From Trichormus sp. ATA11-4-KO1 (GTDB lineage Bacteria; Cyanobacteriota; Cyanobacteriia; Cyanobacteriales; Nostocaceae), in NCBI GenBank assembly GCA_019358915.1, contig JAHHIM010000010.1, forward strand, positions 79,297 to 143,296: a DNA stretch of 64,000 nucleotides. Direction: 5' to 3'. Within the stretch, counting starts at the first letter, position 1. The number at the start of each line of letters is the position of its first letter. The position numbers and the translations under genes are program-made. The notes under the pieces were generated by a model. It had not been told where the DNA came from. It worked only from the letters and a program-made list of their open reading frames with translations, and made no database searches. Below are positions 8,102 to 19,960 of this stretch, in pieces.

Positions 8102-8326
8102 ATGGAAGTTTTTCAGATGAAGTCAACTGTTGGTGAATCAGGAGATTTGCATATTGAGATTCCCACAAAGTTGCCACCCGGACAGGTAAGTATAGTAGTT
8201 ATATTGAATCCTCTTGTCCCAAACAGCGTACTGGAAGCTGATTATGATTTTTCTGATGTCGCCGGAAAGTTAGCCTGGCAGGGGGATGCAGTAGCCATGC
8301 AAAGGTTGCTTAGGGATGAGTGGTAA
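8102..8326 (+). CDS. Putative antitoxin paired with a PIN toxin
   Basis: 74 aa ending QRLLRDEW; overlaps the start of the PIN gene. Confidence 0.7.
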   Translation: MEVFQMKSTVGESGDLHIEIPTKLPPGQVSIVVILNPLVPNSVLEADYDFSDVAGKLAWQGDAVAMQRLLRDEW

Positions 8327-8694
8327 TCGTTATTTGCTTGATACAAATGCGGTGGTGGCACTGCTACAAGGTAATTCACAACTACTACAACTGTTGCAAA
8401 ATGCTGATTGGGTGGGAATTTCTGTTATTAGTCAAATTGAATTTTTAGCATTTTCTGGGTTGAGTCAGGAAGATAAGCTAGTTTTTCAGCAATTTTTAAG
8501 ACGGGTGGAAGTTGTTAGTTTAATGTCCGGGGATACAGTATTAATTGAACAGGTGATCCAACTTCGCCAACAATATCGCCTAAAATTACCGGATGCAATC
8601 ATCGCAGCAATGGCCGCTTCAGATCAATGCAAACTTGGTAACTCTAGATCAGGAATTTGCTAAAGTCTCCACACTAAAAGTTATTGGCTGGTAG
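8316..8694 (+). pseudogene. vapC: VapC/PIN-domain toxin with a +1 frameshift near 8614
   Basis: LLDTNAVV, SVISQIE and KLPDAIIAA motifs. The natural tail ALQINANLVTLDQEFAKVSTLKVIGW* continues in another frame to TAG at 8692-8694. Confidence 0.75.
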
Positions 8695-8744
8695 CTGGCA
8701 AAGTCTTGCTTGATTTTAGCAGCGTCGCTGATTTACAGTCGTGG

Positions 8745-8802
8745 TTAGGCTAAACAATGCCTAGCCTACGAAGGGTTAAAAGTTCTCGAAGTTAGCGATC
8801 GC
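8745..8802. repeat. Direct repeat copy 1: orphan thrS 3' tail plus hairpin, ending in HIP1
   Basis: 52/58 identical to 9291-9348 by manual alignment. Confidence 0.9.
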
Positions 8803-9094
8803 CTTTTAGTTCATCTACGAGTCTGTTTCCATGAATCACTGCTGCAATAGTCACGGTGTCACCTTGAATTCGATAAATAATTCGATAACTGTATGCAAAC
8901 TTTTCCCTGATATTATCTTTACCAAACTCTGGTACTAATCGACCTGAAAAGGGAAATTCGTTTAAATTTTGAGTTACATCAAGTATTTTTTGTACGACTG
9001 TAGCCGCATAAGCAGCCGAGTCACGAGATATGTATGTAGCGATTGCTTCTACATCTTCTAAAGCTTTAGTAGACCAGACTACTTGATAAGCCAT
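8792..9094 (-). CDS. Type II toxin, RelE/ParE family
   Basis: MAYQVVWSTKALEDVEAIATYI...PFSGRLVPE...YRIIYRI...VIHG. Confidence 0.9.
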   Translation of the reverse strand: MAYQVVWSTKALEDVEAIATYISRDSAAYAATVVQKILDVTQNLNEFPFSGRLVPEFGKDNIREKFAYSYRIIYRIQGDTVTIAAVIHGNRLVDELKGDR

Positions 9095-9267
9095 TTGCTT
9101 AAAAGTTCTTTAGCTTCTTGTTGGCTAATGGTTTTTTCTGTATCAGCTACTTCCAATCCATGACGAACTTTTTCGATGACATACAAATGATACTGGATAT
9201 CTTCAATTGAGCAGTCATCTGGTAGTTGCTGTAAAAGAGATTGCACTTGTGCTTTTGTAGTACTCAT
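9079..9267 (-). CDS. Antitoxin upstream of RelE/ParE toxin
   Basis: MSTTKAQVQSLLQQLPDDCSIEDIQYHLYVIEKVRHGL; overlaps the toxin start. Confidence 0.8.
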   Translation of the reverse strand: MSTTKAQVQSLLQQLPDDCSIEDIQYHLYVIEKVRHGLEVADTEKTISQQEAKELLSKWLIK

Positions 9268-9290
9268 AGGCTGTTTGAGTGATTTATTTT

Positions 9291-9348
9291 TTAGACTAGA
9301 CAATGCCTAGCCTACGGATGGTTAGAAGTTATCGAAGTTAGCGATCGC
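9291..9348. repeat. Direct repeat copy 2: functional thrS 3' end
   Basis: Contains the thrS stop codon and HIP1 at 9341-9348. Confidence 0.9.
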
Positions 9349-13607: not shown

Positions 13608-15899
13608 TTACGCTTCGATAACCACCCGGAGGTTACCGCGTTTTTTGGCAACGCGACAAGCGGTAGTGCTACCAGAACGCTCAAATTCTAAATCTAGTAT
13701 GGTGGGGCCGACTCGTAAATTATGTAATGACAGCCGATTAATTGATTCTGGCAAAGCGGGGTCAATAATGCGCAAGCAGTTATTTTGAGCGTCGGGTACT
13801 AAGTTGACTACCATTTGTAGTAGTTGAAATATAGTACCAGTAGCCCAAGCTTGTGGTGTACAAGCAACTGGATATTGGACAGGTGTATGATGACCATTAC
13901 GTTCGTAACCGCAGAAAAGTTCTGGAGGACGTTGTAAGGGTTGTTGGCTAGTCATATCGAACAAACCTTGGAATACTTCTAAAGCTTGATCGATTAAACC
14001 GAGCGATCGCAATCCCATTGCAATCAGAGAATTATCATGAGGCCAAACTGAACCGATGTGATAGCCCATAGGATTATAAGCTGGGGACAAACTGCTCAAA
14101 GTCCTAATACCCCAACCATTAAACATATCTGGTGCGCGCAATCTCTCTGCCACACTATAGGCTTTTTCGGGTGTGAAAATGCCCAAATTCAAACAGTGAC
14201 CAGGATTAGATGTAATACTCTCTACTTGTTTACCATCTCCATCTAAAGCTAAAGCACAGAAATCTTGGTCTTCTATCCAAAAGTCTTTATTAAAACGCAC
14301 CTTGAGGTTTCTCGCCTCATCTAGCCAGCGTTCAGCCAAGTCAAGCCGCTTCTTCATCCTGGCTATTTCTGCTAGGCGAATTTTTGCTGCGTAGACGTAA
14401 GCTTGTACTTCACTTAGAGCGATCGGCCCGTTGGCTAACTCTCCTTTGCGGTCTACAATACAGTCACCAGAATCTTTCCATCCTTGGTTAGCTAGACCGC
14501 GTTTAGATTTACGGTAGTAGGTGAGATAACTGGTTTGTTGGAGATGGCGATCAATCCACTCCATCGCCGCTAGAGCATTCGGCCAAAGTTTCTCTAGGGT
14601 TTCTTGATCATGAGTCCAAGCGTAGTATTCAGCATACAACATCAACCACAGAGGTGTGGCATCAACTGTGCCGTAGTAGGGTGTATGCGGAATTTCTTGA
14701 CAACGAGCCATTTCCCCGAACCGCAACTCGTGCAAAATCTTACCTGGTTCTTCTTCGCGCCAGTCATCCTCGGTTTTACCTTGGTATGATGCTAGTATCA
14801 TTAGGGTTTCTTTGGCAATTTGGGGATTTAACATCAAGGTTTGGGAAGCTGTAATCAGCGAATCCCGCCCGAATAATGCCGAAAACCAAGGCACACCTGC
14901 GGAAACAGTCTTATTCTTGCCAAAAGACTGACGCAATAAATACATATCTTGCTCGGCTCGCTCAATCACACGATTGAAGATACTTTTATCTGATCTAATC
15001 TGTGTAATTTGCTGTACCCAGTGCTGCTCTTCCATCAACTCAGCAGCTTTGGCTTGTCCTAAGGTAAAAGCTGCACTCACCGTGGAACTTGGCTTGTTGT
15101 TGGTCAACATATTCAATCGATAGCCCAGTTTTTGGGTTTCGTGAGAAGCCAAATCCAACCGCCAAACCGCAGTGTAACCTTTGAAATAGTCTGGTTGGCG
15201 ATGCTGGAATTGGATACGAGATTCCATCAGTAAGCCGTCTAAACCTTGATAGGCCAATGTCAAGGATTTTTCTGGCTGTGCGGGGGGTTGACTATGTAAG
15301 GGCGAAATCCCATCACCGACAAAATGTGCCCCTTCCGCAAACGCAGGTTCCATTAAGCGTAAAAGTCTACCCCGTTGTGATCTTTGGGCACCGCGAACTT
15401 CAAATAAATCAACAAAATCGGCATCAAAGCTAATACTTAATTCAAAACTGACGGTAGTTGTGCTGTAATTAGACACCTCTATTTCTTCAAATAGTGCCCC
15501 ATTGAGAACTATTTCCCGGCGAATTCCCACAGTCTCGGCTCTTAGGTGTTCGTCAATTCTCGGGTTAGTACACAGAACTGACAGTGAAAACCCTTTTTCA
15601 GCAGTACTGCTGAGGAGAATAGGCGATCGCCCTTCAATTTGCAACTCCAGACGATTGAGAAACCGGGTATCACAGCAAAATAGTCCCACGCTGGGGTTAC
15701 CATCGTTGAGGGAACAACCAGAAATGTTCCCCATTGTATCCGTCACCAAAAATAAATCATCATCTTTAGCCGTCAGAGTTGGTTGTGGTTTTTCACCTAC
15801 AACACAAGGCCACTCCGAGATAGATAATTGTTCTGCGGGAATAAAAGTTTTTCCATCCAGGAAGATTGTTTCCGGGGTTATTAGTGTATCCGGTGTCAT
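13608..15899 (-). CDS. Amylo-alpha-1,6-glucosidase (glycogen debranching enzyme family)
   Basis: AGVPWFSALFGRD, EEPGKILHE, NQGWKDSGD, YHIGSVWPHDN, PQAWA. Confidence 0.9.
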   Translation of the reverse strand: MTPDTLITPETIFLDGKTFIPAEQLSISEWPCVVGEKPQPTLTAKDDDLFLVTDTMGNISGCSLNDGNPSVGLFCCDTRFLNRLELQIEGRSPILLSSTAEKGFSLSVLCTNPRIDEHLRAETVGIRREIVLNGALFEEIEVSNYSTTTVSFELSISFDADFVDLFEVRGAQRSQRGRLLRLMEPAFAEGAHFVGDGISPLHSQPPAQPEKSLTLAYQGLDGLLMESRIQFQHRQPDYFKGYTAVWRLDLASHETQKLGYRLNMLTNNKPSSTVSAAFTLGQAKAAELMEEQHWVQQITQIRSDKSIFNRVIERAEQDMYLLRQSFGKNKTVSAGVPWFSALFGRDSLITASQTLMLNPQIAKETLMILASYQGKTEDDWREEEPGKILHELRFGEMARCQEIPHTPYYGTVDATPLWLMLYAEYYAWTHDQETLEKLWPNALAAMEWIDRHLQQTSYLTYYRKSKRGLANQGWKDSGDCIVDRKGELANGPIALSEVQAYVYAAKIRLAEIARMKKRLDLAERWLDEARNLKVRFNKDFWIEDQDFCALALDGDGKQVESITSNPGHCLNLGIFTPEKAYSVAERLRAPDMFNGWGIRTLSSLSPAYNPMGYHIGSVWPHDNSLIAMGLRSLGLIDQALEVFQGLFDMTSQQPLQRPPELFCGYERNGHHTPVQYPVACTPQAWATGTIFQLLQMVVNLVPDAQNNCLRIIDPALPESINRLSLHNLRVGPTILDLEFERSGSTTACRVAKKRGNLRVVIEA

Positions 15900-16370
15900 T
15901 AGCACAAGTTCCGTTTACAGGTCTATGTCAATAGGGTCAACAGGGAAAAGTCGCGCTGGAAGACTCTTTCAAGCCAAAAGTCAAATTAATAATCACATAT
16001 TGTTGCCAAAGGAGCAGGCATCAAACCTACACAACAAATCCTTATAAGAGTATATTTTTTATATCTGAAGTCAAGGTGGAAATATGATGATTTTTATCTG
16101 ATTAATCTACCACTCAAGCTTATAGGGCACAATGTACAGGGAATACTTAGTCAAGATACTCAAGGCACATTTTTTTGCCAACAAACTTATTCTTCACTCA
16201 GGAAGGAAGCACTATTTTTTGAAAGCCCAAATGTCAAGTTAGATACTTCACTCAAATAAACTTTGGCGCAGGCTGATAGTAGAGATGTCTGTTATACTGC
16301 TGGGCTGTTGGTGGGGGCGCAGCCGCAAGGTTGTCGGTTGGATGGTACAAAACTTAATCTAAAATCCAGC

Positions 16371-16402
16371 TTGACCTTGTACTTAGGTATAGGGTTTATC
16401 CT
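16371..16402 (+). promoter_or_regulatory. MerR-type promoter/operator
   Basis: -35 TTGACC (16371), 20-bp spacer, -10 TATCCT (16397); dyad ACCTTGTAC-TTAG-GTATAGGGT (7/9 symmetric). Confidence 0.8.
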
Positions 16403-16440
16403 TAAAGCATCCAGATCACTGCATCGGCGGAGTATTCAGG

Positions 16441-16846
16441 ATGCTGCAAGTTGGCAAGGTCTCCCGCAAAGTGGGACAAAGTGGGACAAACTCTATATTT
16501 CTATGAGCGCATTGGATTAATTCCAAAGCCCAAGAGAACTGAATCAGGCTATCGCTTGTACGAGGAGCAAGATATAGAGCGATTAGCCTTTATTACTCGT
16601 GCCAAAGCACTAGGCTTAACCCTTGAGGAGATCAAAGAGGTCTTATTACTTCAAAACGGCAAAGCACCTCCATGCCGCGAGGTTCATTCCAAACTGGTGA
16701 ATAAAGTCAACCAAATTGAAGAGGCGATCGCCCAGTTACAGGAATTGAAAAGTGAATTGTTACCCCTTATTCAGCATTGTGAAAATAACCTTGCTGAAGC
16801 AGGACAGTCCGCTAATTGTATTGTTTTTCAAGATAAACCGTTATGA
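16441..16846 (+). pseudogene. merR: MerR-family divalent-metal regulator, frameshifted by a 10-bp tandem repeat at 16467-16490
   Basis: ATG 16441 gives MLQVGKVSRKVG; the body QTLYFYERIGLI...SGYRLY...C-x34-C-x12-C is in the +1 frame. Confidence 0.75.
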
Positions 16847-17052
16847 AGCCAAAAGTTGCATTTTGGGCGAGTCTATCAGGGACAGCCATAGTCGCTCTAT
16901 GTTGCTTCACACCTGTTCTTGTTGTAACCCTGAGCGCGATTGGCTTCGGGGCTGTAGTGGGCTACCTAGATTACGTTTTACTACCTGCCTTAGTTGTGAT
17001 GCTGGTTATCACATTTATTTCGTATCGTCAGTACAAACACGGAGGAGTTTAA
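16843..17052 (+). CDS. merF: MerF-type mercury transporter
   Basis: GTAIVALCCFTPVLV...GYLDYVLLPAL signature; ATGA overlap with the merR stop. Confidence 0.88.
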   Translation: MKPKVAFWASLSGTAIVALCCFTPVLVVTLSAIGFGAVVGYLDYVLLPALVVMLVITFISYRQYKHGGV

Positions 17053-17054
17053 TA

Positions 17055-17546
17055 ATGACTGAATGCTGTTGTCCATCTTCATCACCTAAAGACAGTGAAT
17101 CTCGTTGGCAGCGTCTCTGCCCACAGGACGGGACAAAAGGAAAAATTGTCCAACTGATCACTTTAAAGAGTTTGCTAGTACCAAGCGCACTAGAGCAATT
17201 AGATTCAGCAAGTGCTTATGGGTTTTGTGCAAGCCCCAATTGTCCAGTTGTTTACTTTTCTGAGCAGGGGCAGACGTTCACAACTGATGATCTGAAAGTA
17301 CCTGTTTTCCAAAAAGATTTTAATGAGGATATTTCTGTTTGCTACTGTTTTGGTTGGAGTCGCCAACGCATCCGTGAAGAGTTCAGCCAGTTCAGCCAGT
17401 CAGTTGAAAGCAAGGTTATTGATATAATCACCACTCACATCAAGGCAAAACGCTGTGGCTGCGAAGTCAATAATCCTCAAGGTGCTTGTTGCTTAGGAAA
17501 TGTTAGATTAGTGACTGAACAAATCGTTGGAGAACTTGCTAAATGA
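17055..17546 (+). CDS. Cys-rich CopZ-N-terminal-like Zn/[2Fe-2S] (BFD-like) metallochaperone
   Basis: 163 aa with 12 Cys: CCC, FCASPNCPVVYF, VCYCFGW, CGCEVNNPQGACC; GGAGGA RBS. Confidence 0.8.
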   Translation: MTECCCPSSSPKDSESRWQRLCPQDGTKGKIVQLITLKSLLVPSALEQLDSASAYGFCASPNCPVVYFSEQGQTFTTDDLKVPVFQKDFNEDISVCYCFGWSRQRIREEFSQFSQSVESKVIDIITTHIKAKRCGCEVNNPQGACCLGNVRLVTEQIVGELAK

Positions 17547-17553
17547 TGTCGCA

Positions 17554-17640
17554 GTATAACAACCCGGTTGGAGCGGACTGTTGAAAGCTGCTGGCGGTGA
17601 TGCAAAAGTTAGTAGCAGCCGCTCAACCGGAACGTTGAAT
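17554..17640 (+). other. attC recombination site
   Basis: R'' GTATAAC, 5 nt, L'' GGTTGGAG (8), central region, L' CTCAACC (7), 5 nt, R' GTTGAAT. Arms CCGGTTG[G]AGCGG[A]CTG / CAGCCGCTCAACCGG leave two extrahelical bases. Starts 7 bp after the stop codon. Confidence 0.85.
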
Positions 17641-17950: not shown

Positions 17951-19960
17951 ATGAGCATTTCGACTTCCGTGCTGAGTGATCTGCTACAGTCCATACCTTA
18001 CCTGCGGCCCCAGCTATATTTCAAAGCTTCACTAACGGCCCTCTCCCACGCGATGGAAGATCAGGTTTTGGCGGCGACTTTAGACCAGCCTTTAGTAATT
18101 GCTAGCTTCCAACGAGAGCGATACTATCGCCAAGAGGCGCATCGCTATCAGCGATTAGCTTTGCGTAGTAATCAAATATATGTCTTATCCGCACCGGAAA
18201 CGGATTTCACCAACAGTTCGGAATACTATGAAAAAATTGCCTTTGAGCCAGAAGATTTTTTAAGTCAAGAGTGGCATTTGGTGGTAATCGCTGATAACTA
18301 TGCTACTTGTTTAGTTTGTCGGGAAAGCCTTGGTTCCATTGCCAAAAATCAGCAGATACCAGATGTCAGTCCTGGTCTAGACATGGATACTGCTCGGAGG
18401 TTTGAGGGAATTTGGACATCAGAACGGGGAGTTAGCCTCAAAGCAGCCGAATTGCTCTTAGACAGGATTTTGGTTTACAGACCAGACCTGGCAAAGAAAA
18501 TTCAAAATGCACGCCAGAGGTTTGGTATAGGGGGTAGCCGCAACTACTCCCAGACTGCACAAATCACTGAGTTTGCTTGTGACATTGATACTGACCCCTT
18601 TGTGCAGCGTTTGGTGACTTATCTGCAAGCTAGTCAGTACAAATTACATAAAGCTTATCGTTCAATTACTGCCCAAGCACGCAAAGAACGTTTAGTCAAC
18701 TCTATTAGTACTGCCATTCGGCGATCGCTTGACCCCCACGAAGTGCTACAAATTGCTGCACAAGAATTGGGGCAACATTTAGGGGCTAGCCGTTGTTTAA
18801 TTTACCGCTCTCCCACCATAGATACTCCAGCCGAAATTAAACACGAGTTCTTGACTCCCGGTGTTGTATCGATGAGTGGGCAAACCTGGGAGCTAGATAA
18901 AAATCCTTTATTTCAGGAAGTAGTAAAAAATGGTGAAGGCGTTTGTGTAGCTGATACTCAAACTGACCCCCGCGTTACTAGTTCGACCACATTATCCCTA
19001 ATTGTCAAAAAATTCGCGATTCGTTCTTGGCTGATCGAACCAGTATTATTTCAAGGGCGATTGTTGGGGATCGTAGAATTACACTATTGCAGCCTACCAC
19101 CACACGAGTGGCAGGCAGGGGAATTGGATTTGGTAAAAGCGATCGCTACCCAAATGGGAGCAGCCTTGATTCAAGCAGAAGCCTACGCTAACCTAGAAGA
19201 CCTCAATCAACAGTTAGAAGCCCTCGACCGCACCCGCAGCAACTTAATCGCCATTACGGGACACGAACTCCGTACCCCCCTATCCACAATTCAAGTGTGT
19301 TTAGAAAGTCTCGCCACTGAACCTGATATGCCTGTAGAGTTGCAGCAGGTAATGTTGAGTACTGCTCTTTCCGACTCAGAACGGATGCGGAAACTAGTGC
19401 AAGATTTCCTCACTCTTTCTAACCTAGAAAGCGGTCGAGTGGAATGGCATCCAGAATCCCTCACCTTAGAAGAGTGTGTAGAGTTAGCTCTCAGCCGACT
19501 TCGCACCCGTTCTTCAACAGAAAAACTCCCCCAAGTCAAAACTCAAATTGCCCAAAATCTGCCTTTAGTGAGAGCCGACGGTGATTGGCTGGTGGAGGTA
19601 TTAGCCAAACTTGTAGATAACGCTTGTAAATTTACACCACCCGAAGGAAAAATCACAATTACAGCTACCCAAAACGACAATCAGATGGTTGAAGTGACAG
19701 TAGCTGACACTGGACGCGGTATCGAAACCAATCGTCTAGAAATCGTTTTTGACCGTTTCTATCAAGAAGAAGGAGCGCTACGGCGTACCACTGGCGGTAC
19801 TGGTTTAGGGCTAGCAATTTGCCGCCAAATTGTCAATGGCTGGGGCGGTGAAATTTGGGCAGAATCAATGGGTAAAGACCAAGGTAGTCAGTTTCACTTC
19901 ACTATTCCCATTGCCCAGGTGAGCAAAGAGGAAAAGCGGTCGAAAGTCAAGAGTAAGTAA
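17951..19960 (+). CDS. DICT-GAF sensor histidine kinase
   Basis: KASLTALSHAMED (DICT), GAF domain, HELRTPL H-box, DNACKF, DTGRGI, GGTGLGLAI. Confidence 0.9.
   Translation: MSISTSVLSDLLQSIPYLRPQLYFKASLTALSHAMEDQVLAATLDQPLVIASFQRERYYRQEAHRYQRLALRSNQIYVLSAPETDFTNSSEYYEKIAFEPEDFLSQEWHLVVIADNYATCLVCRESLGSIAKNQQIPDVSPGLDMDTARRFEGIWTSERGVSLKAAELLLDRILVYRPDLAKKIQNARQRFGIGGSRNYSQTAQITEFACDIDTDPFVQRLVTYLQASQYKLHKAYRSITAQARKERLVNSISTAIRRSLDPHEVLQIAAQELGQHLGASRCLIYRSPTIDTPAEIKHEFLTPGVVSMSGQTWELDKNPLFQEVVKNGEGVCVADTQTDPRVTSSTTLSLIVKKFAIRSWLIEPVLFQGRLLGIVELHYCSLPPHEWQAGELDLVKAIATQMGAALIQAEAYANLEDLNQQLEALDRTRSNLIAITGHELRTPLSTIQVCLESLATEPDMPVELQQVMLSTALSDSERMRKLVQDFLTLSNLESGRVEWHPESLTLEECVELALSRLRTRSSTEKLPQVKTQIAQNLPLVRADGDWLVEVLAKLVDNACKFTPPEGKITITATQNDNQMVEVTVADTGRGIETNRLEIVFDRFYQEEGALRRTTGGTGLGLAICRQIVNGWGGEIWAESMGKDQGSQFHFTIPIAQVSKEEKRSKVKSK

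Follow-up and report, generated by a model that had tools for sequence, protein, structure and literature searches.

A three-gene merR-merF metal unit ending in a CopZ-N-terminal-type protein forms a single integron gene cassette in the cyanobacterium Trichormus

A three-gene metal unit in Trichormus sp. ATA11-4-KO1 is an integron gene cassette of 1,343 bp, inserted singly. It lies in the window, the whole 64,000-nucleotide stretch of DNA that was analysed, which is judged cyanobacterial by its neighbours and relatives, and it comprises, in order at 16441-17546, a merR-family frame, merF and a cysteine-rich open reading frame of 163 amino acids, a gene order that the initial annotation had read correctly. 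The explanation we favour, with about even confidence, is a horizontally moving cassette whose mini-operon is likely induced by Hg(II). On this view the iron-sulphur (Fe-S) protein encoded by the third gene likely serves as a cytoplasmic metal catcher behind MerF, and the copy described here is likely mostly silent.

The extent of the cassette (16292-17634; forward strand, as for all window features unless stated) is defined by an empty site in the same-genus genome G001. There the two flanks, a glycogen-debranching-family gene (13608-15905, reverse strand) and a DICT/GAF histidine kinase gene (17951-19960, forward strand), are joined at G/TT with only the shared GTT core overlapping, so that 16292-17634 represents an insertion. 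The left recombination core, G/TTATAC (16291-16297, crossover after base 16291), coincides with the point at which identity with the relatives L007 and L008 begins, exactly at 16291, and is complementary to the inverse core at 17554-17560, forming an 11-nucleotide perfect inverted repeat. On the right, an attC site of 83 nucleotides (17554-17636) runs from the inverse core GTATAAC to GTT (17634-17636), and its bottom strand is predicted to fold into a hairpin of -15.5 kcal/mol (z -2.4). Similar attC sites occur on contigs C25, C13 and C73 of the same genome, and in L008 the same cassette lies within an array having two further attC sites.

An integron integrase match is encoded on contig C5 (G000:C5:123505-124155; 347 bits against a cut-off of 265) by an open reading frame of 212 amino acids covering model positions 97-313, so that the gene reads N-terminally short. 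A second intI fragment is located on C25 (7844-8086), beside an attC-like site at C25:6552-6636, and scattered attC-like sites are also present at C13:57365 and C73:20686. A complete integron with adjacent intI and attI was not found, the intI matches lying on other contigs, C5 and C25; a generic attC scan near the C5 integrase returned none, though that scan also missed the known attC of the window. The unit resembles the integron cassettes described in PMC8618304 in its attC hairpin, complementary core and inverse core, G/TT insertion and own promoter. It differs in holding three open reading frames (four in relatives) that form a regulated operon, and in standing alone and distant from any intI, whereas cassettes usually carry one open reading frame, with two or none as exceptions (PMC8618304). 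A search of the literature for mer-type integron cassettes found no report, a mention in supplementary tables being possible. Elsewhere in the window, two small gene pairs at 8102-9303, which we take to be toxin-antitoxin-like modules (PIN-type and RelE/ParE-type), lie between thrB-like and thrS-like genes.

Within the cassette, merR is preceded by a putative MerR-type promoter and operator (16371-16402), recognised from its sequence, with a -35 element TTGACC, a -10 element TATCCT, a 20-bp spacer and a dyad spanning 16374-16395 (arms 16374-16382 and 16387-16395); MerR promoters are described as having spacers of 19-20 bp (PMC11672702). A sigma-70 scan missed this promoter because the spacer falls outside the 16-18 bp that the scan admits. 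The operator is the only strong site of its kind in the genome, scoring 47.5 on a matrix built from 28 relatives, against 21.3 for the next; three other MerR-type promoters, with different dyads, are found at C55:659, C73:57568 and C73:63155, and two of them adjoin other MerR-family genes. At 21 of 26 bases the operator is identical to the Slr0701-bound duplex printed in PMC6741143, it differs at 4-10 of 33 positions from the sites of 15 Bacillota TIGR02051 merR loci, and an operator of the same type directly precedes canonical merA in G261. Slr0701 itself was absent among the MerR homologues returned, and the comparison with it is one of operators.

The regulator carries the three cysteines conserved in Hg(II)-sensing MerR, one where the dimerisation helix starts and two within the metal-binding loop, with a spacing of 35/13, against 35/9 in Bacillota MerR. 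The initial annotation was right about the 35-residue spacing, but this is not specific to mercury: a review gives the three-cysteine arrangement as common to Hg-MerR, PbrR and CadR, so the cysteines are not diagnostic for Hg. On all metal-MerR models the window regulator remains below the cut-off (CueR 93, CadR-PbrR 92 and MerR 90 bits); with TIGR02051 the 131-amino-acid frame of the window reaches 90.3 and the intact relative L007 94.7, against a cut-off of 150.85. Phylogenetically, it sits in a cyanobacterial clade of 14 of the 46 tree rows (support 98/98), apart from Bacillota MerR, and the other two metal-type MerR proteins of this genome that were placed on the tree lie outside that clade. 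In G023 and G028 the clade is found at the head of operons for ArsP-type permeases. Members of it are also fused to, or lie upstream of, MTH895/ArsE thioredoxin-like and ArsP permease genes (P0174, P0224, P0244, P0266; L248:2163-4460). Many merF-Fe-S copies are under a second regulator clade, whose cysteine spacing is 51/5 and whose dyad differs, and a TIGR02051-positive MerR precedes the Fe-S gene in L063, L182 and L220.

Such breadth leaves some room for a reading, rather unlikely in our estimate, in which the module responds to soft metals or metalloids in general (Cd, Cu, Ag, As(III)), its mer names recording descent and not the ion dealt with. It would accommodate the roughly equal scores, all below the cut-off, on the CueR, CadR-PbrR, MerR and ZntR models, a three-cysteine site common to divalent sensors, the clade members that head ArsP permease and MTH895/ArsE thioredoxin genes, the second regulator clade, and the P1B ATPases, ArsR-ACR3 genes, multicopper oxidases and cadC-cadA genes that also adjoin the Fe-S gene. 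It accords poorly with the resemblance of the operator to the Slr0701 site, the slr0701 mutant being sensitive only to Hg among the metals tested (PMC6741143), with the presence of that operator type before the canonical merA of G261, and with MerT and MerF being the only fusion partners of the Fe-S domain. Two observations count against specificity for Hg: the MerR clade also heads ArsP permeases, and 26 of 32 Bacillota carriers of the Fe-S gene are without Hg-MerR.

The copy in the window is damaged in both of its first two genes. The merR-family gene (16441-16846), delimited by its reading frames, the alignment of relatives, the Pfam MerR match and the tree, has a +1 frameshift near codon 13: the frame that begins at ATG 16441 stops after 21 amino acids (stop codon 16504-16506), because a 10-nucleotide tandem copy has replaced the 9 nucleotides of its relatives. 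The duplication occupies 16467-16486, where 16467-16476 is repeated at 16477-16486 and where L007, L008 and L009 have 9 nucleotides. The downstream frame retains the second helix of the helix-turn-helix, the coiled coil and the three cysteines; the Pfam MerR match begins at model position 14 of 38, and the alternative starts TTG 16451 and GTG 16481 yield a protein without the first helix, so that the N-terminal helix-turn-helix is not intact and the regulator gene is not the whole gene initially annotated. An assembly error is disfavoured by a contig of run X1 that has identical letters at the frameshift at a depth of 1039, a contig-level agreement that is not independent if X1 is, as it may be, the source of this DNA. 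A loose end with an intact merR start is present in soil run X2.

The second gene, merF (16843-17052; 69 amino acids), matches PF11431 and passes NF033565 with 85.1 against 50 bits, so the family assignment of the initial annotation stands, although the C-terminal cysteines of this copy are absent and C20-C21 alone are kept. Canonical MerF uses a C-terminal cysteine pair, and of the 24 listed MerF relatives that are intact and unfused, a count without broken, fused or MerC rows, 23 have at least one tail cysteine. Compared with L007 and L008, the window is without about 650 bp holding the MerF cysteine tail and merTP. The merTP-free layout also occurs in contigs of soil runs X2, X3 and X4, so the missing segment is not private to this strain. 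In L008, the closest complete-genome relative, an in-frame MerR-MerF fusion of 199 amino acids (L008:4766-5365) may be another lesion.

The frameshift and the clipped MerF, together with merF genes that are broken too in L010, L014, L058 and G261, a patchy distribution (15 of 301 genomes) and the N-terminally short integrase gene of 212 amino acids, would suit a relic without function, left from a larger mer region after the loss of merA and carried passively by integron recombination. We regard this as improbable, the least likely of the readings considered, since the Fe-S reading frame is intact with all nine invariant cysteines, merF and the Fe-S gene stay paired in distant cyanobacteria and under three separate regulator clades, and the close soil relatives X2, X3 and X4 have the merTP-free layout, X2 with an intact merR start. 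This cassette copy is nonetheless likely mostly silent, and its broken regulator makes it a poor test object, for which the intact relatives L007, L141 and L142 are better suited.

The third gene (17055-17546) encodes a stand-alone CopZ-N-terminal-type protein of 163 amino acids and 12 cysteines with predicted Zn and [2Fe-2S] sites, a resemblance proposed initially and now confirmed by profiles, a solved structure and a predicted fold. It passes NF047645 CopZ_Nterm_CC (127.1 against 100 bits) and PF18423 zf_CopZ (74.2 against 28.4), and matches its only solved relative, PDB 2HU9, both by sequence (E 1.1e-9) and by predicted fold (pLDDT 82.6; Foldseek E 4.6e-6, probability 1.00, TM 0.66/0.81). 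Two longer open reading frames, one of 264 amino acids at 16752-17546 and one of 215 from 16899, are upstream extensions of the same frame that overlap merR and merF, and were rejected as the Fe-S gene because relatives begin at the equivalent of 17055.

Nine of the 12 cysteines are invariant across 65 aligned relatives, and all nine are present in the window copy. C96, C98, C136 and C145/C146 align to cysteines of 2HU9, presumably its Zn and [2Fe-2S] ligands, and the first site consists of C22-x-x-D25, C58 and C63; the second cysteine of the first CxxC is thus replaced by D25, a position that is mostly Asp or Asn in relatives and Cys in 7 of the 65 rows. The protein begins with an N-terminal CCC (CC in 57 of 65 rows), and residues 1-15, with pLDDT below 50, form a flexible tail predicted at low confidence. 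A selenocysteine form with the motif GxUC, listed in a review table (PMC13188914), maps to G143-x-C145-C146. In comparison with the N-terminal domain of Archaeoglobus fulgidus CopZ (2HU9; PF18423; NF047645), the fold and most cysteine positions are alike, whereas the window protein stands alone without a CopZ/HMA domain, is linked to Mer transporters rather than CopA, and has D25 in the first CxxC, an extra invariant C134 and the N-terminal CCC. The N-terminal cysteines and the extra cysteine beside the predicted cluster would suit metal capture. A homodimer is predicted with a score of 0.90 (best of three controls 0.01), the runs sharing no less than 96% of contacts, with a pLDDT of 91 or more. 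In the calibration, the pass mark was attained by 20 of the 30 solved homodimers and by 1 of the 23 single chains, although the prediction used its own alignment and ligands unlike those of the calibration and may reflect likeness to the two-chain 2HU9 entry. The predicted interface holds invariant residues together with C98 and C134.

Canonical MerA was not detected in this 99.89% complete genome, where the best TIGR02053 match scores 389 against a cut-off of 454. That best match, L001 on contig C6, is a Slr1849-type MerA-like gene (NF004991, 875.7 against 620) whose product is without the C-terminal cysteine pair; the slr1849 forward primer agrees with the gene in 18 of its 20 bases, and the primer-coded DFPAVM is present. 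MerA is recognised by a redox cysteine pair plus a C-terminal vicinal cysteine pair (PMC3466566), and Slr1849 was counted as MerA-like, not MerA, in the survey PMC8261052; according to a review (PMC4307280), Synechocystis Slr1849 uses NADPH to reduce Hg(II) and is protective to cells. The initial description of the module as MerA-less consequently holds for canonical MerA, but not for a MerA-like enzyme, which C6 does encode. Other candidates were set aside as MerA, L002-L004 scoring as glutathione reductases and L005 as a dihydrolipoyl dehydrogenase. MerT was not found elsewhere in the genome, and a search for MerB returned no match there and none in the controls either.

A co-regulated merA elsewhere, which the initial annotation had named as a finding that would undo its proposal, was looked for and not found, though a plausible unlinked reductase exists. 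No operator precedes the C6 gene, the best matrix score in C6:47000-51600 being -3.0 against 47.5 at the cassette (a degenerate site could escape), so its co-regulation with the cassette was rejected; nor was an operator found before Slr1849-type genes in six regions from five other genomes. The difficulty raised at the outset, that import without a reductase should sensitise cells, is weakened. It probably does not arise in this strain, with its frameshifted regulator and clipped MerF, and Hg(II) import need not be unopposed, since the host encodes a Slr1849-type enzyme whose Synechocystis counterpart is a reported Hg(II) reducer. The C6 gene closes a cluster (C6:48931-53009; L235, L001) with a TIGR04283 arsenosugar-biosynthesis glycosyltransferase (280 against 182 bits) and two membrane proteins that we take to be TVP38/VTT-like, and the Slr1849-type family may be as much concerned with arsenic metabolism as with mercury.

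The cassette shares with a canonical mer operon its three-cysteine MerR-family regulator, long-spacer dyad promoter, Mer transporter gene (MerF) and a co-directional arrangement as in Gram-positive operons. Unlike such an operon, it has no merA in the unit, or in the genome above the cut-off, its last gene encodes the CopZ-N-terminal-type protein, its regulator falls below the TIGR02051 cut-off and it moves as an attC cassette. With the split Slr0701/Slr1849 regulon of Synechocystis (PMC6741143; PMC4307280) it has in common the operator and a Slr1849-type gene in the genome, but here merF and the Fe-S gene follow merR, whereas no mer transporters were found in Synechocystis (PMC6741143), and the operator shared there by merR and the MerA-like gene was not found before both genes here. 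Cyanobacteria are described as without canonical MerA and mer operons (PMC8261052, PMC6741143), yet they reduce Hg(II).

When gene neighbourhoods were surveyed, as had been suggested initially, the Fe-S family proved to be associated with Mer transporters and Hg-type regulators far outside the window; because kin are not independent, the counts that follow describe patterns rather than statistics. Among 301 cyanobacterial genomes, this one included, the Fe-S gene is present in 15 and merF in five, in each case directly before the Fe-S gene; canonical MerA (five candidates per genome scored) is present in one, in the same cluster as the Fe-S gene. At 39 cyanobacterial loci, drawn from 80 listed and including some metagenome-assembled genomes placed by gene content, merF occurs at 28, any Mer transporter within 2.5 kb at 30, merR upstream at 24, canonical-type merA at three (one fragmentary) and a Slr1849-type gene at five. 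Canonical MerA is encoded in 5 of the 48 genomes behind the 80 loci and in 2 of the 37 cyanobacterial ones, completeness not being given, and an above-cut-off Slr1849-type gene is missing from 7 of 17 tested genomes. All 38 longer homologues (E <= 1e-10; 191 candidates) are MerT fusions, 35 of them also with an HMA domain, and natural MerF-Fe-S fusions are found in P0028, L043 and L046. In these fusions the Fe-S domain is joined to the N-terminal end of MerT or to the C-terminal end of MerF, both of which are cytoplasmic.

True merA does accompany the Fe-S gene in some operons (L018, L033, L159 and G261). These canonical-type genes, ending in a cysteine pair, belong to cyanobacterial-type operons with merC, merF or merTP (L018:3863-5299, L033:1882-3318, L159:497-1951, G261:C43:1702-3117), while a 2021 survey counted one cyanobacterial MerA (PMC8261052). 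The initial view that the Fe-S gene takes the place of merA thus fits most cyanobacterial carriers, which are without canonical MerA, but the gene is not a strict replacement, as it also occurs in operons with true merA. Flavin disulfide reductase genes, glutathione-reductase-like or annotated lpdA, recur beside it (L009:3421-4830, L010:897-2249, L073:6810-8150, L126:3544-4962, L131:4426-5805), and their products are possible electron donors.

Outside cyanobacteria, units of the form merR(-merTP)-Fe-S that have no merA are met repeatedly, in Bacillota and on a gammaproteobacterial plasmid. At L130, L182 and L200 the order is merR-merT-merP-Fe-S, and the stretch retrieved around each holds no merA. 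Eight plasmid regions were examined from 32 records with a match: an Hg-annotated merR lies directly before the Fe-S gene in three, merR-merT-merP-Fe-S and merR-merF-Fe-S arrangements occur once each, and the rest comprise one Fe-S-MerT-type fusion, one cadC-cadA region and one copy near merA/merB. MerA was found on one of five plasmids searched, the search covering plasmid sequence only. Two plasmid entries call for comment: the 411-amino-acid product annotated 'merA' at L125:4992-6227 (plasmid CP036351.1) begins with the Fe-S domain, has the length of Fe-S-MerT-HMA fusions and is likely a misannotation, and L128 (CP031730.1), recorded as a plasmid of Stenotrophomonas, bears glmM/glmS and Tn7-like genes along with a merR placed beside Cytobacillus MerR on the tree, and may be mislabelled. 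At 79 metagenome loci, many of them short, neighbours within 3 kb include MerR at 16 (plus two of Bacillota type), ArsR at 13, MerF at 9, MerTP/HMA at 7, P1B ATPases at 6 and ACR3 at 4. In 301 genomes of the order of G363, TIGR02051 MerR is present in 13, of which 11 have merA; in the two that are merA-free, one of them the seed genome, merR is directly followed by the Fe-S gene. The Fe-S gene is carried by 32 genomes of that order, and in 4 of the 11 genomes with merA it lies elsewhere. Of the 40 Bacillota Fe-S matches, only two are directly behind merR, most Bacillota copies not being mer-linked. On this pattern, the Fe-S family is a general metal-associated protein that has repeatedly been put under MerR and tied to Mer importers. 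The literature searched for a link between the CopZ-N-terminal family and mer gave no report, and a mention in supplementary tables is possible.

The protein could itself be the detoxifying reductase, an idea we hold to be doubtful: the two [2Fe-2S] clusters of a homodimer, fed by ferredoxin, would provide the two electrons that convert Hg(II) to Hg(0), replacing MerA. The position of the Fe-S gene where merA would stand in L130, L182 and L200, and directly behind merR in the two merA-free genomes of the G363 order, is compatible with this, as are the mediation of Cu(II) reduction by the Archaeoglobus CopZ N-terminal domain (PMC7558416), the ferredoxin-linked Hg(II) reduction suggested for phototrophs (PMC8261052) and the predicted homodimer, though the dimer score may stem from likeness to the two-chain 2HU9; the co-occurrence with true merA, in the same operons and in 4 of the 11 merA genomes, and the rarity of copies directly behind merR in Bacillota argue the other way. 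In its widest form, likewise with a small chance of being right, this proposal would make the homodimeric Zn/[2Fe-2S] protein a second, MerA-independent Hg route, reducing importer-delivered Hg(II) with ferredoxin-level electrons, placed under MerR at least three times (in two cyanobacterial regulator clades and with Bacillota/Proteobacteria MerR) and spreading among cyanobacteria as an integron cassette.

Capture and hand-off, to which we give an even chance, is favoured over reduction, a role outside mercury and a mere remnant because the gene shares operons with true MerA and also stands without it. On this preferred explanation, an intact MerR would bind the 20-bp-spacer promoter and switch it on upon taking up a soft thiophilic ion, in all likelihood Hg; MerF would pass the ion inward; and the Fe-S protein would take it on its flexible N-terminal cysteines and on C134/C145 beside the cluster, keeping it off the thiols of the cell. 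The ion might then be handed to a host sink, whether true MerA, a Slr1849-type or other flavin disulfide reductase, low-potential photosynthetic electrons, or thiols. In the copy described here, the loss of the first helix would leave the promoter unactivated. The operons shared with true merA and with Slr1849-type genes make the Fe-S protein likely a partner of MerA-like enzymes rather than a substitute for them. Speaking against hand-off, only 2 of 37 cyanobacterial carriers have canonical MerA, 7 of 17 tested genomes are without a Slr1849-type gene above the cut-off, and no operator precedes the Slr1849-type genes here or in the six regions from five other genomes, so that often no downstream partner is evident.

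The cassette shows a whole regulated metal operon moving as a single integron cassette, and it draws attention to a small and concrete candidate, an uncharacterised family of Fe-S proteins joined to Mer importers, or encoded behind them, in several phyla and often where merA is absent. If the Fe-S protein acts as a chaperone, the set of mer components would gain a new member; if it is a reductase, surveys based on merA would undercount Hg-reducing microbes.
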